NCBI GenBank assembly: GCA_037379345.1
Contig: CM074512.1
Location: 32,178,001-32,242,000, forward strand
Direction of reading: 5' to 3'
Length of the DNA: 64,000 bases
Source of the DNA: Perna viridis
Taxonomy: Eukaryota
Shown in pieces: positions 1,637 to 62,900 of this stretch (position 1 is its first letter; each line of letters starts with the position of its first letter). Position numbers and translations under genes: made by a program. The notes below the pieces were generated by a model. The model searched no databases. It was not told the origin of the DNA and saw nothing but the letters and a program-made list of their open reading frames with translations.

Positions 1637-1867
1637 ATAGGAATACATATAGTGTAACTTTGATAATTGCATATTCAATCATACATTCAGTACAAAAAAA
1701 ACATATTTATACGGGTATTATTACGTCAAAAGTATGATTCCCAACAAAAAAGAAAGATGATGAAATCATTTGGTATTACTGAATGTGTATTCAAATTGCT
1801 AGTGTAGCATAGAGGGGAGACTTATTCTTAACTTCTGTTGTCAATCATCGATGTACGTTTAGTAATG

Positions 1868-2377
1868 GCCCCGTGCAGGTCCGGGTGTTAAAAGAATAGG
1901 CCTGCAGCAGCGCTAAGCTTGTCGTAAAAGGCGACTAAATAGTGCTCAGAAACCTAGCCGGGGGCTAGGCGCTCTGCCCACAGAGCAACTGGGATGTGTG
2001 CCCCAGGTGGTGGAATGGGGTACCCCTGGCGTGTTACATGCTGGGGTTGTCAGGCTATAATACGGAAAACCTGACCGCAAACCATAGTGGTGCACCGTGT
2101 TGGGAAAGATGCCACGTTCCTCGCACGTTAAAGAACCCTGCTGTGGTATTCGATAGGAGTAGGAACCTTTGCGCTCCGCCACAGGAGGCTAAATTGCCCG
2201 ACCTTACCCATGCCCCTTTTTCCAGTGGCAATCAAAATTTGTCGACCCTATTATCCTTGTGACCCATCCTTTTTTTTTTCATTTCATGTTCATTTTATCA
2301 TCCATTTCATGTTCATTGTCTGAATATAGCTGAAATATTGCTGCTCGGACGTTAAACCCCAACAAACAAACAAACAA
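1868..2377 (+). mobile_element. Non-autonomous retroposon (SINE-like), 510 bp, structured non-tRNA 5' head, (AAAC)n tail
   Basis: Perfect 13-bp TSD ACGTTTAGTAATG at 1855-1867 and 2378-2390. GC-rich body with GCACGTTAAAGAACCC. Tail CTGAAATATTGCTGCTCGGACGTTAAACCCC followed by AAC(AAAC)n. Confidence 0.9.
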
Positions 2378-2635
2378 ACGTTTAGTAATGAAAAAAATTA
2401 TATTACTCAAAACCTGAATTTTCTTTTAATAAAACCTATTGAATTGAAAAGAGATTGTACATTATCGCTATTTTGTTTAAAATCCCTTTGATTTTGCTAT
2501 ATGATAGTTTCAATCTCACGCCAGTCTAGAGAGAATGAAAATTATCGTATAGCTGCACAACATCGCTTTTCCTCGAAAAATAGTCTCGAAAGGAAACTTT
2601 GCAGCGCTTACACTTCAGCAAAACAACGATAAACA

Positions 2636-17700: not shown

Positions 17701-20700
17701 GTTTTTTTTTCTTCTACATGATGATACGTATGGGCAGAAAAAGGATCAATAGTCGGTTTAATTGATGACCACACCAGTCTAAGATATAAAACTAGCTTCG
17801 ATGATTAAATACAGAATAAGGGTCATCAAATGGTCAACACATGGCACCCGAATGTTTACAAAATTGACGTAAAAACCTTATCAATACTTGAAAATTCGAC
17901 TCAGAGACATTTCGGACCATGACAACCCACTCTTCCTTACCAAAGCTGGACATTTCGGCCCATACATATTTCAGACCATGACAATAGGAGAATGCATGAG
18001 GACAATACAAAATCATATATCAAGTCAATTTTACCAATTTGGATGATACTAATTACAGGGCTGAGAAAAATTATAAAAGGACTTCGGTGCTTGAATTCAT
18101 GATTCCTCGAGATCGTTTATGAGTAATCAAGGGAACCAAGGTTATAGCGGTAACCAAAATAATGTAATCCAGAGACAAAGACCAGACATGGAAAACAGAC
18201 ATACACAACAAAGAACATAAAGGAACTAAAATCATACATACAAATTAACAAAAGCAAATGATTAACTCGGACTCCACTATAAACTGGGAGCATGGACCAG
18301 GTGCACCGGTAGGGTAAGCGTCCTCTGTTTTTTTTAGAAACACCCGCCGAGTTGCTCATAAAAAGTCAAGTCCGGGGTAGACAAACGAGGAAAGGAAAAC
18401 CGTGACCCGTTGAATAAATCAGTTTTCATGTCGCAGATGGATACACCATAACGATCCACGAGTTTTAAGGTTTTAAGGTTTCGCCTTCTTCATATTTGTC
18501 ATTTTATATGATTTTTTCTTATCTATAAGGACATGAAGCATTCACAACTCCAGGAAAACAGGACATGCTTGAACCTGACAAGAGACTACAAGCAGAGAAT
18601 GAAAGAGGCATGATTCAACGTCAGATAAGTATGCCAACACGAATGCCTGGTGGTCAACCAAATCTGCTTTCACTTTCTCCAAGACAAAACTTGTCTAGAA
18701 GTTCAGAAAATATCAACGAAACTCCATTCGACAGTGCAAAGAGTGGTCTAAGAAATACAACGGTTAAACCATCCAAGTCTAAGTTTGTTCATGTAACCAA
18801 TGGTAACTGCTCACCCCGAGATAGACCAAAAGCCAATTTTAACAGAGCGAGAAGTCGTAAGTATTTTTTAATGTTATCTACTAGAAACTTATTTTTTTTA
18901 CAAAAAAGAACGGTCGCTTCAAATTATTAGTGATATTCATTCCTTTTTCGTAGAGTCATTCAGTTCATATAGTACGCTTTTGCATTTTACTATAATTCAA
19001 AAGAATCCATCCTGCTCAATCAGTAAATACGCTTATATGTTTTCACTTCAAATACATTACAATTGTTTACTTGTATCGTTGACTTGTGAGATGGACAACT
19101 GCTTAACAACTTTAATATTTCTTAATAATGTAGTTTATTTTAGCATTAATTTTGATTTGGTGATGGTGTATAACTTCGCAACATTTTTTTTCTCATAAGT
19201 ATCCAGATAACAATAACATAATGCTCCAAAAAGGAGGTCATGCTGCAAATGGGCGTATACAAAAAAAAAGTGCATGTTTATTTCTGTTTTTTTTTTTTTT
19301 TTTGGTTTTTTTTTTGACAAAACAAAACGTTATCGTTCTTTGTCAAATTGAAAACGCACATTTGTATTAAGATATGCAGTTCTTTTATGACATAGATTAC
19401 GCAATTTCAAATTGTAAAAATGGTGCAATATTTATTTCCTCCCTCTAAAAGACAAAATTGTATGAACAATACACTAGCAATAATTATGCGTAAACACTCG
19501 AAATTGGAAATTTGTAGAAGTGATTATCATATAACTTTTGTTAGGTTAAAGCAAGAACAGTATTCAGAAAGGAATATATTTTAATAAATACACATGCAGC
19601 TTCTTTATAAAGTTTTGTATTATTCAAACGAAATCAAAATGTATTTACATTATTTTGAGGGGAAAAGACTCCACACCGTTTGTATATGTATTCGCCACGA
19701 AACTTCTGTCCTAAAGCATGACTTACCTTTCTATCTAACCATATACTAATACTTCATAACCAAGTACCATTTACCATAGCACCAGTTACCAAGACTCAAC
19801 CTGTACCTGGGAAACTCCGAGCCTCAGCGTCTACCTCGCAGTTAGATACCCTCTCCTCTCGACCAATGGGATTGGGAGATTTTATGAGTAAGTTGTACTA
19901 GTTGTGTGACTAATTGCATGCCAGCATGACACGTACGATCTGAAAGTTAACATTTTTCATGACAAATTTCATGATCAAAAATCGAGTTGAACTTTAATTT
20001 TTATTTGTCAGAGATATAAATGTTTATTTTTATTTGTTTTATAATCTCGGTATGGAAAGATCCCTAATTGTTAATAAAATCTTTTGGGTTGTATACATAA
20101 ATAAAGAGCCCTTTCAGTTTGATTGAATTCCGAAAGACTTTTTTAAGTGACTAGCATATTACGTCATTAGAATTCAAAACTAATTGAAGAATTTTATGAG
20201 CATGGAAAATAAGATACGCATGACATATCTTACTGAGTGTATCATTACTGATAAATCATGTATGTAGACGTTGAATAGTTCCCATGGAAATTACAAATGA
20301 TTGAAATTTTTCATACGTTGATTACACACGTGTGAATTTTATCTTTTGATTTTTTTTTAAATAATTCAGAAGAGCTAGAAAAGAAAGGACAACTACCAAA
20401 CGTTGTACAGCCTGGTATGGCAGATGTTTCCACAAAGCACTCTTTTATAATCACTCATGTAGCATTGCCATTATACAAATTATATAATCATGCATATATG
20501 TGTGTATCCTCAACCAGTGATCGACCATTTGAAATTTGATTTGGGTGAATAATCTTTCTGCTATCTTTTTCAAAGATGACTTTATTTTGTATATATTAGG
20601 TCGTTAGGAAGTCTGAATTTGAATTTACAAATGTAATTACAACACCACCTTCAAATTAGAATGGTCGTGTCACTCAGGAATCATGTACAGAATGTATAAA

Positions 20701-23700
20701 AATATATATCTTTTGAAATATGAGTCAAAAGTGTATAGTTAGCGTTCCTTATGACCCGCTACTGGTGTTCTTCATCATTTATGTTTCAACAAGATAATTT
20801 GAGGTTTAATTTGTATATTTTGTATATATATTTCACCGGCATGAATTCTAATGCAAGAATGGTAATGTTTTAGACTTCTTTTTTAGTATCTAACCAGATT
20901 TTAGTTAGACGTTAAACATTAGATTTTTCTGAAATTTTTAGCAGTAGATGTATATATATATTCGAGTAGGGTTTTACCCACGCTTAAAATTGCACATTAT
21001 ATTATTCACAGAGAGAAGTTTGAGTCAGACTGGAGAAAAATCCTTTCAACCAACGTCAGAACGTTCCTTTAAACCCATAACCTCTCCTCTCAACCAACGA
21101 AATTCTTGTAAGTACTTAAAAAAAAGAAGCAAATCATTTCAGTACATTTCGTCTTTAGATTTAAGAGTTATTTCTCTTTGCACTATACAATATTATTAAA
21201 GCCTTCTTTTTTCATGGCCATCACTTTACTTTTTTTAGACGACGCCGACGATGATGACGACGAAGGTAAATGTAGGCCAATATGTGGTCGTTGATGCATT
21301 CATTCATACACCATGTTTAATTAACATAAGCATGCAATAATTTATTTATGGTCTCAATTGTAACTTAATGTTTATCTCCTACCGTTTATCCTTAAATAGC
21401 TTTTCACTGTTATCTCATCTCTCTCTTTTGACATACACAATTACTGTACTTAATTCGTTTATCTTAACTTAGTCTTTTTACTCGATATCTGATCCAAGGA
21501 TTTCACATACATTGTTGTATGTATATGTTTAACTAACAATATTTAAGCATCACAATATTGAACATTGAATTTAATGTTATCATTTCTCAGAATATTTCCT
21601 AACCCGATTCAAGTCGTTCACTTATTTATATCCCTTAAATGTTGGAATGATCTTTCTTTCACTTGATTTAATCATTTTTCAAAATATTGCACCATCTTTT
21701 CAATTTCAATGCATTTTGCTTTTGCTGTAAAAGCATACCATTTTGTTAGATTCTAGGGATGACGCTTTGCTTGCGGCTAAACTAGATACATTGCCTGTAT
21801 ATAAATAGAAAGTTCTTACATACATCTCTTATTACATCAAATTATTGTATTTATTTTTTCACAAATATTAACATTATTTGCTTTTCAACGAACAAGGTAA
21901 GTTTTACACCCCCATTTTACATACACGATAAGATTATATAGCTATTCAACACATTTTACATAGAGAAAACTTAAGCGATTTGTTTAACCATGTTATGTCT
22001 TTTACAGCCATATTGTTCATATCCTATACTTATTTTCTATTGCCATTTTAGATATTTGTTGTGTGTTCGAAACTATTTTTTTTCTCTTTCCGAATCCGTG
22101 TGCAGTGTAACAGTTTTGTATGTTTTGTTTTATGTCCCGTCAGCAGGATAGGAGATTGTAGGCCTGGCTTTTAAAATGTCTGGTTTCGATATGTTTTTAA
22201 GCTTTTACTCCCATTGTAGAATGTTTCACGGCATATTTGTGCTTATCCGTTTAATATAAAATCAGAGAAATAACACACATTTACTCAGGCCTTAGATACA
22301 TGTATTCTTCTACAATAAATAATGGCGGTTATTTTACTAATCTGATCAGAAAGTGTCGCGTATTTAAGGCCTCATATTCTTCGTTTTAACACTTTTTTGG
22401 TATTTTATACGTATTTAGTTCCTTTTTACCTTCTTAATGTGACTTCGTTTTACTTATTTATTATTCATGATAAAGAAATGTTCCCTATAATTCAGTTGTA
22501 AAATTTCTGAAGGAATCCATCAAAAATTGAGATTGGCCTTATTTTGGACGATATACGAAGGTGCATTTTTGGAGTTTCACCATATCTGTTCACGTTTCTA
22601 TCTTTTTCAAAACGTCAATAAGATTTAGATTTTTGAAATCAGTTTACATGACGTCACAACACTTAACTAGGGGATATAAAATTATCCTAATTTGCCAAAG
22701 AGAACCCGCAATAAGAAGACTTGTACAAATCAAATTAAATCATGCAGAAAATGTCAAGTCGACGCTTTTGCAAAAGACATGCTTTCAAAACAAACACATC
22801 TCATATTATTTCCCCTTTTTATCTATTTGTTAGTATTTATGAAGAGTACAAGCTCTGAGGAGAGTAAACCAAGACCACCACCTCAAGGTGAAATACAATG
22901 TAAGTATTTAATATCTGTTATTTGTGTGTAGAAATGGGAGTGTTAATTTGAATAAAATGAACCACAACATACACTTTATGATTGTTAGTATATTTTTAAA
23001 TGAGATCGTTTACCTTTTCACTTTGGTACAAGTTTATAAAATAAAGATATTTTAACCAAAGATTTAAATGAGCACTTAAAATAAGCTGAGATTGTCACCA
23101 TGACCTGATCTTCGGTTGTGGAGTATCCGTTTACAATGTGACGAACGACAACCATCTTTATCGATGTCATTCCACTTTCACAGGACCGACCACCTTCTTT
23201 CTCGATGTCTTTCCTCTTTCACCGGTCCGATCACCAGCTTTATAGATGTATCATTTCTTTCATCAAACCAACAACTACCCTAATATATGTCTTTCCTTGT
23301 TCATCGAATCGAACGACCACTTCTTTTATTGATGTCTTTCCTCTTTCCCTGAACCGCCCACCACCTTAAGAGTTGTCATTTCTTTCACCGAACCGACCAC
23401 CACCTTTAAAGATATCTTTCCTCTTCCATTGAACCGACCACCACCTTTATAGATGTCATTCCTCTTTCACCGATCAGACCACTGCCATTTTACATGTCTT
23501 TCTTTTTTTCACCGAACTGACTGCTACCTTTACAGATGTCTTTCGTCTTTCACCGAACCGACCACTGCCATTTTAGATTTCTTTTCTCTTTCACTGCATC
23601 GACCACCACCTTGCACAGATGTCATTTCTTACACCGAACTTACCACCACATTTATTGATGTCTTTCCTCTTTCATTGAACCGACCATCACTTTTGTAGAT

Positions 23701-25246
23701 ATCTTTCGTCTTTCACTGCACTGACCACCGCCTTTATAGATATCTTTACTCTTTCACTGCACCGACCACTGCCATTTTAGATTTCTTTCCACTTTCACTG
23801 CATCGACCATCACCTTGTATAGATGTCATTTCTTTCACCGAACTTACCACCACTTCCTTTATAGATAACTTTCGTCTTTCCCCGGGCCTGACATCTCCGA
23901 CAAATCGGATTGGTGTGTTGCAAACTGTAGGAATTGCTCACCATCAAATGCGCATTTAGTGGGACTCGAGCTGTTCGTTTTGATTTTTGTGTGTGAATTT
24001 CTGGTATACGATGTGTTTTCGTCTGTTATTTTTTTTTACTTTGAATTCCAACGTTGCTTCGTCCTTTGGTTTTCCTTTATTTTATACCGTTGATTTCTCT
24101 CTGTAATGAGGAAAGAGGTGATGACAGAGAACATGGTAGGAAGTCACAAATGACAACACATTGTACATACCATTTGTATGTAAAATTTACATTAGATGAC
24201 AAACTGTAGCTAAAGTATCGTAGGTGGTCTATTTCTAACATCTTTAGTACATATTGAGGCTTATTTGAACTGTGTCATTCAGTGAAAGAAATGTACTGTA
24301 GTGGTTTTGAGACAATCTAAATTTACAATGTACTTTGTAATGTGGTGTTTTTTTCAGACTTGTTATTGTGATTTGTGGTGGAGTCGATCAGCAAAATTAT
24401 GTAGTATTTTAAAATACCAGCCAAGAAAAAAACAAATAATCACTTTGTTTTCGAAATTGCAAAAAACTGGGACTATTATCTCTTTACTCTGAACATCTAT
24501 ATTTAATGTACTAGAACTTGAAAAAGCTGTCCAACATGCCTCGCTGTCGTTTTGAGTTTTCTTAACTTTACCTAGGCAAAAAGAAAACAATTTTTCTCTT
24601 CGCAGGTCCTGACTTTTTATTTGATGTCGATACATGTCATGAAGACAGAGAGGTGTCGTCTGATGGTAAAATGCTGAAAAATCGAAAGACCGGGAAACCG
24701 TCTTCAAAGAACCCAAAGAAGCAACTAAAACAATACAAGGGCATACTCGGCGGACTTTCCTTCAAAGATGGTGGTAAATACTACTACGAAGTTGTTGTAA
24801 CCTTCAACATTATTCAACCTCTAGAGCAGACGTGGTTGATATTCGAAATTGGCCTTTGCAGACGAGAGGATGTTGATAAGCATCACACTGTAGAGCGCCA
24901 TGAGCATGCGCGGTCTTTTTATGTAGCTAGGTACCCGGAAGATGGCAAGTTAGCCCAGGAATTTTGGCACAATCGCGATCTTTTGGCCTACGTGCCTCTG
25001 AGCGAGAACAAAGCTGGTCTTACTGTTGAGGTCACTTACGGTTTTGTAGTAGATACAAAAAGAAAGAAATGGGTAATAGCGGATGTAAAGAAACAGAAGA
25101 AACTTCACACATTTTCTGGTGTCGATTTCTCAAAACCAATGTTGCCTGTATTTGGTACATACAACCCTGACCTAATAAATGTTGAAATGAAACTAAAAAC
25201 TGGGAAACAAATTGCGTCTTTCCCATCATTTCTCAAAGGACTATAA
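10164..25246 (+). CDS. Spliced TRIM (RBCC) E3 ubiquitin ligase-like gene with two tandem PRY/SPRY(B30.2)-like domains; join(10164-11799,12342-12452,14013-14159,14879-15004,15443-15466,16360-16428,16685-17323,18530-18856,19780-19887,20370-20414,21012-21107,21239-21265,22834-22899,24606-25246), 1353 aa if all exons are used
   Basis: All 13 introns are GT-AG and phase 1. All internal exons are multiples of 3 and stop-free in frame. The summed length of 4062 nt runs from ATG 10164 to TAA 25244-25246. Domain motifs were read directly from the translation. Confidence 0.85.
12342..12452 (+). CDS. TRIM linker exon (SENSHDILPESAERDFSGDDTQRETLVQQAGLSDCL)
   Basis: ttttacattag acceptor, C|GTAAGT donor, 111 nt, phase 1-1, open in frame. 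Confidence 0.75.
13180..13394. mobile_element. 215-bp MITE with TTAA target-site duplication (Kolobok-like ends) in a TRIM intron
   Basis: TTAA|GGGGGTAGACCTAGAATAAGGGACACAAC ... GTTGTGTCCCCTACCCTAGGTCTACCTCC|TTAA. Confidence 0.85.
14013..14159 (+). CDS. TRIM linker exon with basic cluster (IENETLEALRRRRRCRDKRSNSCPIPPSSSRNILTMLKTWKQYLKFKT)
   Basis: aatcacag acceptor, G|GTATGA donor, 147 nt, phase 1-1, open in frame; may be a cassette exon. Confidence 0.7.
14879..15004 (+). CDS. TRIM linker exon (ERSQNARLKSEPSPAVEERSPSPEPETAFMPVVSPRANVPAS)
   Basis: ttgtacag acceptor, C|GTATGT donor, 126 nt, phase 1-1; paralogous to exon 21012-21107. Confidence 0.85.
15443..15466 (+). CDS. TRIM acidic micro-exon (DTFEESE)
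   Basis: tactttttatag acceptor, GAAG|GTATTT donor, 24 nt; positional and compositional paralog of 21239-21265. Confidence 0.75.
16360..16428 (+). CDS. TRIM pre-SPRY exon (VLRRNGQVNGEPRTGPAIFNDVT)
   Basis: ttatttcag acceptor, T|GTAAGT donor, 69 nt; splicing creates the Cys of CPDF; paralog of 22834-22899. Confidence 0.85.
16685..17323 (+). CDS. PRY/SPRY(B30.2)-like domain, copy 1
   Basis: FDVLTVHDEREVSIDGK (PRY-like), GKFYYEVDV, FELGLC and MWPVFG (SPRY-like); acceptor ttacaatag, donor AAG|GTATTA; 639 nt; roughly two-thirds identical to copy 2. Confidence 0.92.
17496..17503 (+). CDS. Putative alternative terminal micro-exon (…LKG-S-stop) giving a single-SPRY isoform of 919 aa
   Basis: Strong acceptor cgttttttacttcag| followed by GT TCT TGA; produces FLKGS*, mirroring FLKGL* at the end of copy 2. 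Confidence 0.6.
18121..18362 (-). mobile_element. Dispersed ~240-bp repeat family, copy A (probable non-autonomous retroelement 3' end)
   Basis: Reverse complement of copies at 26626 and 59682 (GAGGACGCTTACCCTACCGGTGCACCTGGTCCATGCTCCCAG...CCCTTGATTACTC). Confidence 0.85.
18530..18856 (+). CDS. TRIM exon starting the duplicated module; paralogous to the 3' end of coding exon 1
   Basis: RLQAENERGMIQ~RLLAENESGVVQ, FDSAKSGLR~FETARNELR, SKFVHVTNG~SKFMPVVNG; same AGTC|GTAAGT donor; acceptor ttcttatctataag; 327 nt. Confidence 0.88.
19780..19887 (+). CDS. TRIM linker exon (PVTKTQPVPGKLRASASTSQLDTLSSRPMGLGDFM)
   Basis: ttaccatag acceptor, A|GTAAGT donor, 108 nt, phase 1-1. Confidence 0.78.
20370..20414 (+). 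CDS. TRIM linker exon (KELEKKGQLPNVVQP)
   Basis: Poly-T tract plus aattcag acceptor, G|GTATGG donor, 45 nt, phase 1-1. Confidence 0.7.
21012..21107 (+). CDS. TRIM linker exon (ERSLSQTGEKSFQPTSERSFKPITSPLNQRNS)
   Basis: ttcacag acceptor, T|GTAAGT donor, 96 nt; begins ERS and contains F-x-P-x-x-SP like 14879-15004. Confidence 0.85.
21239..21265 (+). CDS. TRIM acidic micro-exon (YDADDDDDE)
   Basis: tactttttttag acceptor, GAAG|GTAAAT donor, 27 nt. Confidence 0.8.
22834..22899 (+). CDS. TRIM pre-SPRY exon (VFMKSTSSEESKPRPPPQGEIQ)
   Basis: tttgttag acceptor, T|GTAAGT donor, 66 nt; splicing creates the Cys of CPDF. Confidence 0.85.
23140..23882 (+). repeat. Degenerate minisatellite, ~40-41-bp unit, ~18 copies, in the last TRIM intron
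   Basis: Consensus ~CACCGAACCGACCACCACCTTTATAGATGTCTTTCCTCTTT repeated head-to-tail. Confidence 0.9.
24606..25246 (+). CDS. PRY/SPRY(B30.2)-like domain, copy 2 (terminal coding exon)
   Basis: tttttctcttcgcag acceptor; CPDFLFDVDTCHEDREVSSDGK, GKYYYEVVV, FEIGLC, MLPVFG; TAA 25244-25246. Confidence 0.93.
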
Positions 25247-25576: not shown

Positions 25577-26625
25577 ATAGAGGACATTTATATGTGTATT
25601 TACCCTTGTAGATGCATTTGTTCTAAATTGTGCTTGTTAATTTGCATTTAGTTATTTTTTTTAATTATATATTTACTGTATACAACTTTTATGTATTTTT
25701 CTTATTTACTTTATCCGTCCAATTAATTAATTGTTTTGTTATTGGAATATTGTACGTTTTTCTAAAGTTGATTTTTGTGCTTTAAAATTTTTTATTCGTT
25801 TATAGTATTTCCAGCCTATTTTTCGTCGCTAGTTTGATATATGAATTATGCAAGTAAAAAGCATTATGTTGTAACTTCTTTATTTCTTAGACATTTATTT
25901 ATAACATAGATAATAATGTTTTCAAAGATCAAATAGTTAATACACTCCAGTTGCATAAATATTGCGAAACAGCAAATGTATTAGGGGTAAAATGTATCTC
26001 TTATGCACTTGATCTGCTGTGATTGAAATATCACATAACTTTTGAATTATCTGCTATAGCTTCTAATTTTTTTGACATTTTCCATTCTGACTTAGTATCT
26101 ACTCTACAATCACTGACAAATAAAATATATTTGTCGGTTTCTAAGATGAGATCTTTCTCTGATTGATTTAATTAGTTCTGGCGTGATTTTAGAGGTTCTT
26201 GAAGTATGATGGTTACTTAAGAATCAAAGGCGCTGTTGGTATGAATAGTTGCTTCTACCATTCTTATTTTCTCCACAAATAGTAATTTTCTTCAATCATG
26301 ACTGTCTTATTTATGTTCACTCTGTGTGCGAAAAATACTATTGCGATAGGTGTTTTCGGTATTCATTTAAACAAGTTCACTTTAAATTTAATTTTTGATT
26401 TCTCAATTTTACCGCTGTGTACTTTTTTGGTCGCGAAAATCAACAGTGTCTTCTGTTTCTGTGTCAATGACACTGATGGTCCTATTATTGATTTTCAATA
26501 CGTAAAGTGGGAGGTTCTATACCTATATTTTTTTTAGCATACCTGATTACGAATGTAGCCATGTAAAAGAATTACTGTGACAAAAAGTTTTTTTTTAGAT
26601 TATATTGATTTGAAAAATAATTTTG

Positions 26626-26845
26626 AGAAAAAGCAGAGGACGCTTACCCTACCGGTGCACCTGGTCCATGCTTCCAGATTTTAGTGGAGTCCGAGTTGCT
26701 CATTTACTTTTGTTACTTTGTATGTATGATTTTAGTTACTTTATGTTCTTTGTTGTGTATGTCTGTTTTCCATGTCTGGTCTTTGTCCCTGAATTACATT
26801 CTTTTGATTACCGCTATAATCTTGATTCCCTTGATTACTCTTTGA
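26626..26845 (+). mobile_element. Dispersed repeat family, copy B
   Basis: Near-identical to copies A and C. Confidence 0.85.
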
Positions 26846-29800
26846 AATCTGTGATATAATACTAAATTGTGATAGCTAATTATAAACAAGTATTATTCAT
26901 TTAAGATTTTTTAGTTATTTAATGAATTTGTAGTGTTTATTTTATCTATTTGTTAGTGTGTTATATTTATTAATTTTTATAATAAATTTTTTTGAGTTTC
27001 AATTATGATTCAATTTGAATTTTACAATATATAACATGTCCTTGGTTTCCGAAAACAACGTAGAGGTGAGATATTTAGATAAAGATTTGAATCAATTTTA
27101 CAACTGCTGAAAATGTGAAACGAATGTCAGATTCCTTGCCATCTCTTCGTAAAACCAAAAATAGTAAAACTAACATTGGCAATAGGCTATATTTTACACA
27201 CAATTTAAGATCAAATTTTGCTTAAACATCCACCACATAAAGAAAACATCATAATTTTAAGAAATACAGCATCTCAAGTCGAATTCGTGCGATAATAGCG
27301 ACATAAACCATTTTTCTCCCCAAGGAATACACCATGTTTCTTATAGGGAATCCAAATACGAATTCAAAATAAACTGGTTGGACAAAATTACAGTAATAAA
27401 AGTTCAGGACGAGCAAATTAGATCACTATCAAATCACATAAGGTTGAAGTTTAAAATTAAATATAAGATATACGGATATAACCTCGAATTTTCTCCTTTG
27501 ATAGATATCGAATAGTAGTTGCCTAAATATCACTTAAATAAATCAGGTTTTCCTTCCATCCATTGACACTCCCACAATATCACAAAAGAAAAGTAACAAT
27601 TTGATGATAAAAGTTTTGTCACCATTTTTAAGACCACTGCAGCAGGTGATTTCAATTTAAAAACCCAACAATCAATTTGTTTATTTATTTCCATTTCCAC
27701 ACCCCTTTGTCTGCAAACAAAGATTTAATACTTTTTTATTTTTCGCGAAAACAGCAATAAAGTGGAGATTGGGTGAAATTTCACACACAATAAAATATTT
27801 TGGGAGTAAATTGGACGTTTTATACCTCTATAATCACAGGATTTGTTTAGAAAGCTGAGATTTGATTACACCCTATCGAGGACAACAGACGGTCTTAAAG
27901 GGAGCAAATTAGGACCTAGTGTTAAAAGTCTTATACAAGATCACTTTTGAGAATTTAATCGCACTAGGGTTTTAATGATATTGCCGAATTATTCAGGAAT
28001 TGTACCTTCTCTATGTCTAGATATTTGATGGTTCTCTGAAACATTAAACACCATTTTTCACCAATAGACCTGTGTTCACTTATGAGAATTTAATCGCACC
28101 TGGGTTTAACGACAATGTCTAATCATCTCAACTCGATGTTTAGTTCTGTGGAATTCGGTTTATAGTATGTGTTGGTAGCTTGACTTTTTTTCCTTTTCAC
28201 TTCGATCTTTAAATTTCTCGTTCAGGAGTCTATGGTATACATTGAATCGTATTAAGACGTCATTGCCACTTCAACACCATGACATTTGGTTCTGTGTCAT
28301 TTATAATAAGACCCATAACTCCAATAAAACAATAAAACCCAAATGATTCATAAAGTTTCACGCTGTTTCTTGCATGTAAAATCTTAATTAATTGTAAATT
28401 CAAGTTAAATATCCTGATCAGTGACAAAATATTAGAAAGCTAAATACAAATGCACATCATTTACCAAAGACAAAAAATGGCACATATTTTTGTTACTATA
28501 TGAACATGAAAAAAATATGTGAAAGACTTTTAGGGTATTAACTGCTGTTAAACAATAGGTTGAATATCATTCTTTTTCTGACAATAAAGTGCTCTTTATT
28601 CGAGGGTATGCGAGTACATACACATGCAAAGTCCAATTTACGACGTAATAGCGAACTCCCGCTTCGTATATTCCACTGTAGCGGTACTCTGTCTTAAACA
28701 AGTTGTTTTTGGTCGTCCCCACCAGACAAGATTTACTATTTTCCCCTTAAATCCACTTGACATTGTTAAGAAAGGGGACACGATTACATAACAAATACAT
28801 AAATCAATCTTGAAATTTTGCATAATCTATACCTACTTAAATCAAACATTTTTCTATCCATGTCCGCTCCCGTCACTAGCACACCCTATAGTTCTGGATA
28901 CATGAAGTCGTCCGATACACCTTACAAATCTTGATAGTCTCCGGTAGTGCGGGCTAATTATTGGCATGATTCAGCAGGGTTCGAGAAGGCGAAAAGCCAC
29001 AGCTTAAAAAGATATCAAAACATGGGTTTAAGTCATTTGAAGTTGATAAACTTGTGTAACCAAGATTGATTTTTCTCTTGATCCTTTGTAACTGGTTACA
29101 TGTAAATCAAAGGACATGGAAATTTACACAAACTACTCGAGAGTTTCCCCAGTAACTACATTGTTTTAGAATATGCAATCTAGAAATTTAAAGCATATTC
29201 ATAGCTCTTTTGTACCTGATTTAAGAGGATAAGTTTCCCCACCTGCAGAGATGAACAGTGTTTGTTAACAGGGAGGCCTTCTCTGAAGTTGCAAATTTTG
29301 TTTGACTTCACAGCTTTCTCTGACAAAATGTGCAACAATTAATTGTATGTCAACAAGGACCTTCAGAGGGAATTGGAGTCCAGGATAAGTAATTCGAATA
29401 TTGCAATTCTTTTGTATACATTCATAAAGATTACTACATAATGTACATAGTTTTTTGCTACAGGATGAGGAATCTCTTCCAAATACGAAGGGACAAATAT
29501 GTGTAACATTATCACTGAATGTGCACTGAAATACATATTTATTTATAAAAAAAAGTTATTTTGGCTATTACTTCAACCTTTTTTTCAATATTGATTTTTA
29601 TAATTCCTTTAAAAAGTTTTAACAAGGAGTCATAGAAGACAATAAAGCGTACAACCCAATTGGAGCCCCAGGCATTAGTAACTTTGATTAAAAACTATTA
29701 ATAAATACATGAGTTATATGAATGACGACGTTTCTCCGAGTAACAGCAACTTTACAAGATGCAATATATGCTTTTCTTTGTATATGAGGCCGCTTAACCA

Positions 29801-45086: not shown

Positions 45087-46408
45087 TATTGTGTTGAGTT
45101 TAAGAAGATATTTGCATTTGATAAACCTTATTGCTTTCTGTATAGTCACCTGTCAATCTATTTTTTTTAAGTTGTGAATGCCGTCATAGAAGCTGGAAAT
45201 TATCTACCGGTCTTTAAAGTTATTTTTTTAATAAGCCATTGTTGTGGCGTCAGAAAATTGTAAAAAAAATATGTTTTATGAACAACCGAATGAAAACATT
45301 AGACTTCAACTGTTGACAAGTTCCGTTCACCTTTCGTTCAACATCAATTCACATGCAATATATTAAAACATTTTATTTCAAAAGAATACAGACAAGCATG
45401 AATAAGTCCATGATACAAAATATGTAAATGGACCCATTTTTCAAGAAGCCGTCCAGGAGACATGTCCACTGTCACTTCGAAAATATGAAAGGCAAGAGTG
45501 TCTATGGTTATTGGTTCAATGATATAACACACAAAAACACAAGTAATTGGTAAAAAAACGGGCGCATAGAGCGAAAATCTTCCTTGTTTACATCTTTATT
45601 GACAGGCATAATGACACTAATACAAATATACCAAACAAATGTGTGAGCCTTCTTTCTACAGGGGTCTAGTCAGGTTGCCTATCGCAGCATATGAAAAAAA
45701 AAATTAGATTAGAAAAATGCAAATGTTTAGTAAACTTGTAATTTGCACAGCAAAACAAACACCTCGACTCTTCAACGAAGCAACTTATTGTTTAGAATGT
45801 TTAATGAATTCATAAAAAGTAAAGATCAGTTGGTGATATTTTCTACGCAGATTCCTCATAGAACCCAAATGGCAGTGACCAGAGGTTGATATATATAGGT
45901 CTCCATATATACTCTTGCTATTCAAACTAACTGTGAGTGTGTATATTTCAACGACTGATATTAGCAATAAATTAAGTATGATGTAACATATAGATATGTA
46001 TATCTTTTACTTTCATATAATTATTAGACGTTTGACCGATAAAATGGTACTTTCTACAAAAGATTTTGGCTGAACTCCTGAAAAATGTATCTTACTTCTG
46101 ATTGGAGCCTGCATAAATCATATAAAATCGATGTGCTAATCGTCAGCGACCCGATTAACTCGTTCGTTAAAGTACTATTTTATGGAAGCTAACATTGTAT
46201 TCGTATATAGTTTAGAAGAAGACTGGAATCAGGTTTTACATAAAAGGCAAGACCAGAATTCACGATGAAATAAACACTGGAAAAAATCCAGACTAATGTA
46301 TTAATTTAAAAAAAGTTTAAAAGGTTCCTTCTTTAAAGTTACTATTTTTGACAATTTTCTCCTTAAGTTCCGTCATCTAATCAATTACTTCTTGCTATTT
46401 TTTTCCTA

Positions 46409-46894
46409 TAGGCCCGTCCTTCAGCCAGTTACCTCTGGCTATTTCCTCATGTAGGCCCGTCCTTCAGCCAGTTACCTCTGGCTATTTCCTCATGTAGACC
46501 CGTCCTTCAGCCAGTTACCTCTGGCTATTTCCTCATGTAGGCCCGTCCTTCAGCCAGTTACCTCTGGCTATTTCCTCATGTAGGCCCGTCCTTCAGCCAG
46601 TTACCTCTGGCTATCCTCATGTAGGCCCGTCCTTCAGCCAGTTACCTCTGGCTATCCTCATGTAGGCCCGTCCTTCAGCCAGTTACCTCTGGCTATTTCC
46701 TCATGTAGGCCCGTCCTTCAGCCAGTTACCTCTGGCTATTTCCTCATGTAGGCCCGTCCTTCAGCCAGTTACCTCTGGCTATCCTCATGTAGGCCCGTCC
46801 TTCAGCCAGTTACCTCTGGCTATTTCCTCATGTAGGCCCGTCCTTCAGCCAGTTACCTCTGGCTATTTCCTCATGTAGGCCCATCCTCCAGTCA
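46409..46894. repeat. Homogeneous 43/41-bp tandem array, ~11.5 copies
   Basis: Unit GTAGGCCCGTCCTTCAGCCAGTTACCTCTGGCTA(TT)TCCTCAT; one substitution (copy 3) and a 2-bp deletion variant in three copies. Confidence 0.97.
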
Positions 46895-46898
46895 CTTG

Positions 46899-47091
46899 TC
46901 AAAGAGTAATCAAGGGAACCAAGAATATAGGGTAATCAAAAGAATTCAATCCAGGGACAAAGACCAAACATGGAAAACAGACATACACAACAAAGAACAT
47001 AAAGTAACTAAAATCATACATACAAAGTAACAAAAGCAAATGAGCAACTCGGACTCCACTAAAAACTGGGAGCATGGACCAGGTGCACCGG
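46899..47091 (-). mobile_element. Dispersed repeat family, copy C (5'-truncated)
   Basis: Reverse complement of copy B from CCGGTGCACCTGG to GATTACTCTTTGA. Confidence 0.85.
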
Positions 47092-47905
47092 AAGAAATCC
47101 TCTAAAAGCTTACTTAGTATGATTTTATCGTAGCTTCTCATGATATGACGACCTTTCTTCTTTTTCCTTCACCGTAAGTATAAAAGAATGTCTTTTAACC
47201 TGAAGTCAGTAAGTGTAGACTGATGGACACGACAAAGGAGTTCTGCAAGATTAGTGTCTATGCTTGGTGATTTCTAAGTAATGAATTTGGACTGGTTTTG
47301 GTCTCGTGGTAACAAACATTTTGTTGTGATTGCCAAAACATAGTCCTGATGCCTTCCCTGTTAGCATCAATCAAGTTAAATACATGTAGCTATACTGTAG
47401 GTGTTTAGAGCCCTTTTTAAGTTGAAGGAACCACACTCAAATTGTGTGATCCCAACTAATTCACTAAATAAGAGTAACAACAAAATTATCGAACACTAAT
47501 CCGATTCATAATCAAGTCAAGACCAAAATAAATCTGGCAAAACGGATATTACACCACCGAAACAGCTGGTACCGCAATGGTCCTGACTTGGTACAGGCAC
47601 TTCAGTTCAATCTAGGTTTTACAGCGCGCTAAACCTCCATTGCGGCCTGACTATACCAGTAGTGACATTAACACAAACTTGAGGTGTAGTAGTTATTGAG
47701 CTATTTTAAATTCAGTTTTTTTTTAACGTTTATTACGAGAGTAATCTGAAAAGGGTGATTTTATACACACAAAATTATTCAATATGCATCTATCTGATGG
47801 TTCAGAAAGACGGGTTTGCGTAATTGAAACACTAAAAAAAAAAGGAACGAGAAAAGCTGGGTGGCCGAATTGAAATTAAACGATTTATTACCAGAAACTG
47901 AACAG

Positions 47906-58600: not shown

Positions 58601-59681
58601 TTGGATATCACTAATCCAAAACAGAATTGTTATACTCAACTCAAAATAGCCCATTGAAAATATATTGAATGAAGTTGTCGTTTAATAATTTCTTTACCTT
58701 TGCCATTTTATTCGCGCGCACGCTTGTGCGTGTTTGTTTTTGTTGTTTTATTTATTTTTTTTTTTTTTTTTGGGGGGGGGTTGTGTTTTTTGTTTGTTTG
58801 TTTTGTTTTTGCATTGTCAGATGGAGCATCCAGTATTACTACGTCTTCTTTAACATCCATATGCATGTAATCGTACACGTATAACAAAATGTAACCTGTT
58901 AATACATCCAAAATAATGCAATACCTGAATTCTCATTGCCACTGTTAGAAACAATATACAATTGATATAGACTACAAGTTTTTCATCGAATCTGAAGATG
59001 AAGAATTGTTAACAATTTATCAATTCTCTACAAGCACCTGAGCCAGATTGTTTGTTTATGAGGAACCTATTGCCAAATCCATTCATTTTAAATGCCATTG
59101 GATCCAGCAAGGAAAAAAAACTGTCTAACTCTGCATTTCTTCAAATTGTGTAATTACAACATTAAATCTATCAAGAAAAAAAAACATAGCGCTGCATAAA
59201 TCCATGCAGGGAAGTGTAATTTCGATGTTATTTTTTGCGTGTATCATGTTTGTTTTTTTTATGGGATATTCTACTCGGCTTTGGACTCTGGGGAATGCAT
59301 GATGCTGTTTATGCTTTATAACATGTAACCGAGTTTTTTTCTTGTTCAGTAAGTCAGTCTTCACTTTTATCACACAGACTGAGCAGTGTACTATCGTGTA
59401 TAAAGAAACCTGTCTAACCCAAATCCTGAATAAAGGGGTTGCCTATCCAAAGCAGATTTCTTTTTACATTTTAAACCCGTATAAACCGAACACCTTCCTA
59501 AACCAAACAATTCATTCAGTCCCAAAAAAGTTTGGTTTAGACACTGTACTAAATATCCTTTGTTCCTTATTCTCATCATGAACTCGTGGATCGATACAGT
59601 ATATCCATCTGCACCATGAAAACTGATTTGTTCAACATGTCATAGTTTTCCTTTCCTCTTTCATCTACCATGGACTAGATT

Positions 59682-59926
59682 TTTTTATGAACAACTCGGC
59701 GGGTTATTCTAGAAAAGCAGAGGCTGCGTACCCTTCCGGTGCACCTGGTCCATGGTCCCAGTTTTTAGTGGAGTCCGAGTTGCTCATTTGTTTTTGTTGC
59801 TTTGTATGTGTAATTTTGGTTGCCTTGTGTTCTTTGTTGTGTTTGTCTGTTTTCCATTTCTGGTCTTTGTCCCTGGATTACATTCTTTTGATTTCCACTA
59901 GAATCTTGGTTCCCTTGTTTTCTCTC
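59682..59926 (+). mobile_element. Dispersed repeat family, copy D (more diverged)
   Basis: atgaacaactcggcgggt..tctagaaaagcagaggctgcgtacccttccggtgcacctggtccat... colinear with copy A. Confidence 0.85.
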
Positions 59927-62900
59927 TCAATAAAGTACACGAATTAATGATTTATATGTTTCTATAACCTAGTATTAATCCAAATGTTAACGCCTTGTTT
60001 TGATACTTGAATCTGCCTTTCCCAACTTCATTGTGCGATGCATTGTTGAAGCCAATATTATCATCATCTCAGATGGTGCAAATTATGTCTTCCACTTTTA
60101 AGAGGACACGTGTTGGTTATTGTCTTGTCCGTCAGTCTGTGCACTAATTAAAATTTCATATTAATCAAGTATATCGAAAAGAAACATAATAGCACAGTTA
60201 TTCAGTTCTGTACATTTAGAGTTTTCATCAATTTTCTACAGCAAAAACAAACTGTTCTCTATTATTTTTAGTATTAACAAAACCGTTAGAAGAGAAAAAA
60301 AACCAGATAAATGGGATTGAAATAAATTGTGATGTAATTTTTCCTGTATGCAAGTTGGATAAAATATAGGAAGACAAAATGACTACTGAACAAATGTAAG
60401 GCGTTCAAATTAAATTAACGTCCGCTTAAAGTTCAAGTAAACCAATAACTTCTTTTGAACCCTAAATGTTTAAAGTTAGGGTTGTCACAAATAGTTTGTC
60501 TAGAGCACTTTAAGCATAGTTTGAAAAAGAAAAAAAAACATGTTTCATCTCTTAACAAACTTAAATTAAATTACGACAAAGAACACCGTCGAAAGACGGA
60601 CTTGATTTATAATGAGAAGATTGTTAGAAGTTGATAAGATGTGCATACAAATGCATTACGCTACATTTGGCTGCATTGTCGAGGTGCAGTGGTTCCTTTG
60701 ATGATCCGTGCACAGATCCTCTGAAAGAAATTACCCCCATTATTTTCAAATTCAGCGTTAAATCAAATATTGTTGGCTGTAGTTAGCGAAGTCTTCCCCC
60801 TCGTGTTTCCAATTGAAAATAATTCGAAACATTCCCGCTAATGTCTTTTGTATAGACTGAAAATCCTTTACTTAGAAGTGCTGTAATTACAAATATATTT
60901 CTTTAAAAGAATAATCGCGATGAAAGGCTGCTTTCTCACACATGTTTGAACAGTGCAGATTCGTTTGACATATAGGGAAGGCGTTGTATTTTCCAGATAA
61001 TATACGTTTATCAGAGTGTATTTTGTTCTAGTTTTTCAAGGTATATGAGGATGTCAATTTTCTATATAGTTTAATAACAGAAGTAATTAGATATGTTACC
61101 TCCCTTTTCGAGCTCTTTTTTGACAGAGTTAATTTCAATGTTGAACTGTAGGAAAATCAAAATGTCAAATTTATGAAAATCTGAAATTTTTCATATAATG
61201 AATTTTTAAAGTAGGATTGCATTAAATGAAGATAGAAAAAAACAGAAGATGGCGTTTTCACCTATATCGAGAAACCTTTGGTAGACACTTACTACTACTA
61301 AAAGACTGAATTATTTTGAACAACAGGTCACATAACTCTTTGTTGATCTAGGAAGAACACTAATGCAAGATGATATCAATTATTTTATTAATAGTTCACC
61401 TGGTTGCTTTGAAGGTCTTTGAAGTACGAAACGAAACAAGCTTTTTGACGTTTACCTGTCCATTTCTCCATACCAGTTCTTGATGTGTTGCGATAACTTT
61501 CATCAAGCAGCCAGTTCCCTATCTAGCTTTCTGAGGTCAGAATTCCCACCACTGACCCAAACAATTAGAGAAATACTAATTGTATCTGATTTTCATTGAG
61601 AAAATGAGGGATAAATTGCAAACCCCCATTTCTTCAAACACGTGCTCTTTTAATATAAAAGTCTGTATGGATAAAAGAAAATACTAGAATGATTTGCGAA
61701 CTTGGCATTCTTGGTAAAAATGTTACTGCATGATGGCAAATCTTGTTAGCAATAATTGCTTGTAGCAATTTTATCATTATACACCTAAACATCATAAAAA
61801 TATAACATGGTGATATAAGTTGGCGATAAAATATCGTCTTTTATACGGAAACAACTATCTAGCCTGGAATTTCAAATTAACCATACTGAGTGGATGAGGT
61901 TGTTTCTGCGCAGGGGTTTGCATTAATGAACTTTTCAAAGGATTTTTATTTCATTAGTTCAAGTATATTAGCTATTTTGTCTTAAATATTTGATGTCTTT
62001 TAAATTAAGTTTATGAGATCTGAAAACAATAATTATTTGCTAATAGAAATTTAATGGCTACGGAATTCGCGGTTATCAGTCTTCATCAACGGTAATTTGA
62101 TTTAAACAATCGACTTGTTTTATATCTCCATTTAGTTACTAATATCATTTAATCAATTTTCTGATAATGACTTATAAATTATGAAACATGTAGATAATTA
62201 GACAAAAATGATACTCATCGACACTCTGTTGCTGAACTCCACATTAAAAATAGTCTCAGGACTGTTAAAGTAGTGTAGGTATTCGACTGAATCAGGAAAA
62301 AATCGTGGACTTGATGAAGTCGATTACTTTTTGTAGTCACTTTATAAAAAAAATGCGTACGAGTTTTGAACTTGGGAAAACCAACAACTTCTTAAAATTA
62401 AAAAAAAATATCACCTGTTGGGAAAACATTCTTGTTCCCAGTCTTTTACGTGGAATAATTTATTTACTTCCATGTTTCAGTGTATGAATTCAACAAAATT
62501 GGACCGAATAACATTAAATGTATCTAAGTTAAACGAACTTTATCTTAACATTTGACTAAGGATAACGTTGCAGGCAAAAAAAAACAAGGTCCTCTAAAAT
62601 TAATTTTTACACTCATCAAAGCTTTAGTCACTTTCTCAAAAAGGTACATAAAAATACAATTAACCAACATTTAACTTTTTGTACCGCATTTTTTATGTCT
62701 GTTTTCGAGTGATAATTCTTTCTTTTTTTTAAATCACTGAGTACATAAAACAATATGTTAAAGTAAAAAAAAAACACGAAATAATAAGAATGAAAACCTA
62801 TCCTATTTTTATCTTGACAGACAAAATTAGACGAGAATGCCAAAAACCCACCGTTACAAAATGACATTTATCATAAATCTTCTATAAAACTCATCACACT

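Follow-up and report, generated by a model that had tools for sequence, protein, structure and literature searches.

We analysed a window of 64,000 nt (the whole stretch) of the Perna viridis genome (assembly GCA_037379345.1, contig CM074512.1, positions 32,178,001-32,242,000 of the forward strand), which carries a 510-bp retroposon at 1868-2377, without an ORF of note, between identical 13-bp target-site duplications (TSDs). The coordinates and letters given in the original prediction for the TSD, for pseudoknot stems S1 and S2, for the stem that follows them and for the hairpins at 1921-1935, 1953-1969 and 1971-1986 were all correct. The features, in window coordinates, are as follows.

1855..1867, plus strand: 5' TSD, 13 bp, identical to 2378-2390
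1868..2377, plus strand: LP-SINE copy (non-autonomous non-LTR retroposon), 510 bp
1870-1873 with 1882-1885, plus strand: pseudoknot stem S1, enclosing U1874 and the S2 5' strand (1875-1881)
1886..1898, plus strand: loop 3, a linker of variable length with the conserved AGAATA (1893-1898) at its end
1899..1906, plus strand: S2 3' strand, 7 bp with 1875-1881; 1906 can lengthen S2
1909-1915 with 1940-1946, plus strand: stem P3, differing in sequence among families and holding an internal loop and a hairpin
1921-1938, plus strand: sequence-fixed hairpin GTCGTAAAAGGCGAC plus TAA, inside P3 (1909..1946)
1953-1969 and 1971-1986, plus strand: two family-specific hairpins, outside the conserved head
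1987..2290, plus strand: body of unassigned origin
2291..2379, plus strand: I/Nimb-type LINE-like 3' tail, including (AAAC)n repeats at 2361-2379
2378..2390, plus strand: 3' TSD, the first two letters of which also fit the AAAC tail

The element had been taken for a tRNA-less, SINE-like retroposon without A or B boxes. No tRNA gene was called within the window and the element contains no B-box, in agreement with this; the A-box part is less clean, as there is one loose match at 2008. The near-complete pairing of the head, which had been offered as evidence, did not stand up: the nested fold of 1860-2000 was no more stable than shuffled sequences (z -1.27; 19 of 200 shuffles as good). Because the stability of the nested fold is ordinary, the case for structure depends on comparison. 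The hairpins at 1953-1969 and 1971-1986 were found in none of the other families compared. Positions 1954-2101 were marginally like the 5' UTR of the I-group LINE from the same genome (score 49, with 4 of 200 shuffles as high), and the tail aligned to the 3' end of the LINE L230/L310 with a score of 43 against a maximum of 37 in 500 shuffles.

The LP-SINE class and its copies in Perna viridis

LP-SINEs were named by Matetovici et al. in 2016 in oysters, abalone, Littorina, scallops and medfly, and their first ~70 bp are reported to match the 5' ends of Nimb-17_LMi, I-3_DR and RTE-9_CPB (PMC4758252). The published elements resemble ours in being tRNA-less, with a ~70-bp LINE-derived head, variable TSDs and a tandem-repeat tail (PMC4758252). 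In our copy the head is homologous to Nimb-17-type LINEs (59.9 bits to the 5' end of LINE L230), the TSDs flank the element directly, the 3' end is (AAAC)n, and there is no tRNA head; the suspected kinship of the head with LINE 5' ends is thereby supported. Scallop heads in supplementary figure S2 of the 2016 paper, compared by eye, carry the same motif (PMC4758252). The oyster LP-SINEs are 256 bp long (PMC4758252), whereas the element here is 510 bp and its body has no match. We conclude that it is a new family of LP-SINE. The element class and the head sequence were already described in 2016 (PMC4758252), and novelty of the sequence is therefore not supported.

The 2016 paper was the sole relevant one in the LP-SINE literature searched, and the motif strings were absent from the literature searched. 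It put the head forward as a promoter, called for experimental work and pointed to Pr77, a promoter and ribozyme in one, as an analogy (PMC4758252). Neither "pseudoknot" nor "exonuclease" occurs in its text or searched supplements, where no fold is described and viral copies of the head are not reported (PMC4758252). Nor did Rfam or the open-access literature searched contain a description of the fold, the viral copies or the head swap presented below. The bipartite LINE derivatives of Kojima (2018) likewise join a LINE 5' end to a LINE 3' end and have no ORFs (PMC5786205). They differ in deriving from RTE, Ingi, Vingi and R2 (PMC5786205), whereas the ends here are of I/Nimb type and the middle may have another source.

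A search of the Perna viridis genome (723 Mb, AT-rich) yielded 1056 candidate copies, and the 40 that were scored were 98-100% identical. This agrees with the description of the element as young; the family also has an older part, however, with copies of 74-95% identity flanking LINE loci. The start of the element lay at position 1 or 2 in 30 of the 30 best copies fetched, which were picked for full length, and TSDs of 10-15 bp were found in 26 of these 30. In a further set of 60 copies taken by the hairpin alone (30 of 134 plus 30 of 304), 55 started at positions 1-4. The 5' ends thus cluster at 1868, as predicted. A 19-mer from the head occurred 10,551 times and one from the tail 15,769 times, with no occurrence of the reversed controls; the excess of the tail indicates that truncated copies exist, yet full-length ones are common.

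Whole SINE units are also arranged in head-to-tail arrays with a 504-bp period and at least four units (L064-L067, G000:C1:9835982-9837515, and L272:1-900), and in the first of these two changes in the S2 3' strand break pairs. Two copies (L008, L014) each lie in reverse orientation within the tail of a further family member.

Fold and conservation of the head

The ~80-nt head is predicted to form an H-type pseudoknot, followed by the invariant AGAAUA and the sequence-fixed hairpin. The hairpin string, fixed by the construction of the search, retrieved at least 122 metagenome, 9 viral and 13 prokaryote-assembly stretches. Among instances selected by the hairpin, AGAATA was present upstream exactly in 97 of 146 and with at most one mismatch in 125 of 146, and AGAAT was invariant in all 21 aligned sequences. 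Across these 21 diverse sequences ~22 bases were invariant, the hairpin part of them being fixed by the search. Other parts of the head are free to change: the linker before AGAAUA ranges from 0 to ~60 nt, the P3 sequence varies freely, and S1 is 3-5 bp long, with its loop almost wholly paired. The scallop copies printed in the supplement of the 2016 paper alter the outer pair of the hairpin.

We measured the pairing of S2 in 20 family representatives, in which S1 had been located blind to the partner strand. Paired cells numbered 123 of 140, against 84.5±5.1 when partners were swapped (maximum 107; 0 of 20,000), a count that is inflated because the representatives came mostly from instances already parsed as paired, misparsed rows (L221, L173 and the second L123 copy) having been dropped before the test. 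Slid registers gave 42-59 paired cells, and most positions showed three or more types of pair. The viral records were chosen by the hairpin only and so avoid the selection that inflates the larger count; when five of them were parsed alone, S2 was paired in 34 of 35 cells, the best of 120 pairings. Among copies within the Perna viridis genome we counted 5 double changes, 24 tolerated changes and 36 broken pairs. The comparison thus supports the predicted pseudoknot by covariation across unrelated families, and supports it weakly within the genome itself.

Stretches with the hairpin and no pseudoknot (L215/L219, L220, L221, L228, L232, L312, L314) were set aside as chance matches. Four relaxed-pattern scans of viral contigs gave no hairpin variant with a pseudoknot and no further viral member.

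Carriers of the head in LINEs and viruses

Two of the retrieved records, L230 and L225, are 5' ends of LINEs that have two ORFs and encode APE and RT; L230/L310 also has RNase H. By their domains and ORFs, L230/L310 and L270 were assigned to the I group (putatively of Nimb type), having two ORFs with APE, RT and RNase H in ORF2; the match to an ORF1 zinc knuckle was below the cut-off. A Vingi origin was rejected, as the carriers found are two-ORF LINEs with RNase H. Although L230 and L225 lie inside prokaryotic assemblies, they are likely host-derived, and several other LP-head records within prokaryotic metagenome-assembled genomes are likely eukaryotic contamination. L230/L310 (G001:C4:518905-525050) is a complete-looking animal-type LINE with intact ORFs that adjoins bacterial genes in a symbiont scaffold, where no TSD was found for it. 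It is likely an assembly chimera with host DNA, and may be an insertion into the symbiont.

The closest LINE family of the Perna viridis genome has an RT 63-72% identical to that of L230 (best 147 of 4919 candidates scored), and 12 of 12 fetched loci share their start point. Its 5' UTR aligns with the L230 5' UTR from about position 180 onwards (133 against a maximum of 53 in 200 shuffles) and with the L225 5' UTR (122 against a shuffle maximum of 56). The head of this family is an HDV-like double pseudoknot with a P1 of 7, a P2 of 7 and a P3 of 4 bp, and the strict descriptor it fits was matched by 0 of 300 dinucleotide shuffles; a loose descriptor was matched by 27 of 60. The SINE head passes neither descriptor, and L230 passes the loose one only. 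In sequence, then, the LP head occupies the place of a predicted HDV-like ribozyme in a sister LINE. The HDV-like ribozymes of R2, L1Tc/ingi (Pr77) and RTE are likewise pseudoknotted modules at the exact 5' end and are reported to be swapped between otherwise related LINEs (PMC6765202, PMC5786205). They differ from the LP head, which has neither a P3/L3 between the P2 5' and P1 3' strands nor a C-containing J4/2.

The members of this LINE family (L268-L279; for example G000:C5:41396948-41404948, element from ~900) are young, intact two-ORF I-group LINEs; all 12 copies fetched are full length, share their start and end in (AATC)n, and their HDV-like fold is missed by Rfam. No HDV-like ribozyme in I-group LINEs appeared in the literature examined. 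At ~1065-1105 of L270, 3' of the HDV-like head and immediately 5' of the part of the UTR in common with L230, there is a short stem-loop able to pair over an A-rich linker with a strand further on; by eye, and without statistical significance, it resembles a degenerate LP pseudoknot.

The exact partner LINE, with the tail of the SINE, was not found in the Perna viridis genome, and the tail of the 12 fetched full-length LINEs differs from it (score 38 against a shuffle maximum of 37). Matches to the tail with other letters upstream were considered as partner LINEs and rejected, 30 of 31 being truncated or variant SINE copies. The element is likely mobilised by an I/Nimb-type LINE.

In other records the head is joined, by eye, to tRNA-like, RTE-like or minimal bodies. 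In L106, L147, L155, L167 and L172 it stands directly upstream of a tRNA-like head, which parallels the MESC SINEs of scallops; with this order an internal Pol III start would leave the LP head out. In L224, L231, L102, L226, L229 and L223 it is followed by a body that is very short (~190 nt) or by bodies and tails of other kinds.

The whole motif was present in 7 of the 9 viral records that hold the hairpin. In six viral records it lay beyond the last long ORF and no more than 140 nt from where the contig ends. RdRp domains were found in L214, L216 and L218 and a tetravirus-type capsid in L212 and L217, which represent the same virus and in which S1 starts ~10 nt past the stop codon. L211, with RdRp look-alikes that serve as a lead, holds two tandem copies of the motif. 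Viral contigs could be chimeric, yet L212 is in agreement with L217, and no SINE family seen resembles the viral copies. In a 212-kb DNA-virus contig (L213) the motif lies 141 nt before a 1056-aa ORF; the intergenic region (L213:4950-5140) has an NAD-dependent DNA ligase gene on one side and this ORF, which has a phosphodiester glycosidase domain, on the other.

Candidate functions of the head

No run catalogued as RNA was listed as containing the element, and expression was therefore read from one raw RNA run, X21 (19% read). Positions 1600-2600 collected 5149 reads, almost wholly inside the element; among first mates the minus strand was favoured ~2:1. Read starts did not pile up anywhere, and on neither strand did depth fall before the boundary, the strand ratio staying similar to that inside. 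Reads running into unrelated host flank numbered 250 at 1868 and 64 at 1869 (at least 314 in total). Most element RNA in X21 thus sits in host transcripts, uncut. These counts are a mild argument against both efficient self-cleavage and plentiful trimmed RNAs; the library may be of either direction, and most reads stem from diverged copies, only 632 being 99% alike.

Because the pseudoknot covaries and the head has copies in RNA viruses, which have no DNA stage, the head likely works as RNA. Compensatory changes in a pseudoknot and residence in such viruses are what the 2016 proposal, an internal RNA polymerase II promoter acting as DNA with the fold secondary, cannot account for, and read starts do not pile up at +1 in X21. 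The position of the head at +1 of both LINEs and SINEs, its replacing or preceding tRNA heads (PMC4758252; L147/L155/L167), its upstream location in the DNA virus L213 and the ~2:1 strand ratio of X21 first mates would all suit a promoter, and a dual role as in Pr77 is conceivable, but as the main function we consider it very unlikely.

Two functions had been offered originally, a self-cleaving ribozyme of unclassified type and a structure protecting the 5' end, along with the statement that the head matches no HDV, hammerhead, twister or pistol fold. Descriptors, core motifs and Rfam all bore out that statement. In Rfam the element had no match at E≤10 and 12 relatives had none at E≤0.1, although this silence is weak evidence because Rfam also missed the HDV-like head of the sister LINE. 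The nested double pseudoknot of HDV-like ribozymes (P1-P2-P3-L3-P1'-P4-J4/2-P2') gave 0 matches in the SINE head with either the loose or the strict descriptor. The core of the hammerhead ribozyme is CUGANGA with GAAA, and CUGANGA is absent on either strand. Core motifs of the pistol, twister, twister-sister, hatchet and hairpin ribozymes were likewise absent save for a loose pistol-like match at 1936; this register, which starts at the hairpin, has a 3-bp knot that is not kept in other families and was discarded.

A ribozyme in the head would have to belong to an undescribed class, cutting just before S1 and freeing the element from host transcripts. Such a cut would suit a head that starts at the exact 5' boundary, holds many invariant bases and shares its position with the HDV-like fold of a sister LINE, and UTRs of toti- and tombus-like viruses are reported to hold ribozymes, at times as tandem pairs (PMC13725137). 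Cleavage at the start of a viral 3' UTR would, however, presumably detach the 3'-terminal replication signals. A known catalytic core was not found in the head, and X21 depth shows no drop up to the boundary, the strand ratio equals that inside and starts do not pile up, a weak objection, since the library may be of either direction and most reads come from diverged copies. We regard self-cleavage as unlikely, and of the two functions offered a 5'-protecting structure would fit the viral 3'-UTR copies better.

Viral RNAs that resist 5'-3' exonucleases (xrRNAs) are the known parallel for such protection: compact, partly sequence-fixed 3'-UTR modules of diverse RNA viruses, sometimes repeated, as the LP head is (PMC10520033, PMC11702639). 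Location in a 3' UTR and tandem copies are given as xrRNA traits (PMC10520033, PMC13556198). The coremin class has a 4-bp hp1 with a YGAD or YGNNAD loop, a conserved spacer and hp2, and stalls Xrn1 at the base preceding the first hairpin (PMC10520033). Neither that loop nor the spacer is present in the LP head, where the hairpin loop opens with UA. Class 3 xrRNA (ST9a) has a P1/P2 stem-loop, a J1/2 bulge, an L2B plus AGY motif and a loop-to-3' pseudoknot (PMC11702639); the LP head shares the loop-to-3' pseudoknot only and contains no J1/2 bulge or L2B motif. No xrRNA in retroelements was reported in the literature searched.

Our leading reading, which we hold tentatively and on comparative grounds, is that the head is a roadblock to 5'-3' exonucleases that would fix and protect the RNA 5' end. 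A copy would be transcribed within a host transcript, 5'-3' decay would trim the host part and stall one or two bases before stem S1, and the protected RNA with its LINE-like tail would be reverse-transcribed by the protein of a partner LINE at a new site, giving insertions that start at the head. For RNA viruses the expected product of the module would be a non-coding 3' fragment protected from decay, as with known xrRNAs. With this one activity the sharp start, the viral 3'-UTR position, the tandem copy and the exchange with an HDV-like fold could all be explained, and HDV-like folds appear to protect the 5' ends of R2 templates (PMC11331408). Since simple pseudoknots do not stall Xrn1, as described for plain frameshift pseudoknots (PMC10321173), any block would have to come from the extra hairpin. 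Further points against an exonuclease block are that by sequence the head belongs to no defined xrRNA class, protected RNAs starting at +1 are at most a minority in X21, and the swap with an HDV-like fold suits a ribozyme equally well.

The ~22 invariant bases also suggest sequence-specific recognition, and the head might instead be a translation or protein-recruiting element, either of the cap-independent enhancer type or a site for a host factor or LINE protein, with 5' ends set otherwise, for example by the transcription start. Its sites suit translation elements (LINE 5' UTRs, virus 3' UTRs and the stretch 141 nt before the L213 ORF), the flat X21 coverage fits, and IRES and protein-binding roles have been credited to HDV-like heads (PMC6765202). 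Left unexplained would be the insertions that start at S1 in several unrelated families and the repeated retention of the head by non-coding SINEs; a LINE protein, moreover, is not encoded by viruses. We consider recruitment of this kind fairly unlikely.

Taking exonuclease block and new ribozyme together, we lean towards the view that the LP head represents an undescribed functional RNA class. As a module it would be exchanged among LINEs, the SINEs of several animal groups, at least three lineages of RNA virus and one large DNA virus, and it could replace an HDV-like ribozyme at a retrotransposon 5' end. It would then count either as a new class of ribozyme or as the first element of xrRNA type in cellular genomes. 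It bears on the means by which retroposons that lack a promoter or a tRNA acquire exact 5' ends, and it recasts the putative promoter of 2016 as a directly testable RNA device. Either outcome would have a bearing on the exchange of RNA modules between viruses and transposons and on 5' modules for retrotransposon gene-writing templates.

The window holds other repeats besides the LP-SINE. A long inverted repeat at 2645-2745, with 48-nt arms 88% alike and a miRNA model match below the cut-off on both strands, is probably a palindromic MITE-like repeat, and 2450-2550 is likewise repetitive by read depth. Tandem arrays with periods of ~41 bp and ~43 bp occupy 23148-23913 and 46358-46949. Another dispersed repeat is present in four copies, 86-95% alike and in both orientations, at 18121-18340, 26621-26846, 46899-47094 and 59581-59930.
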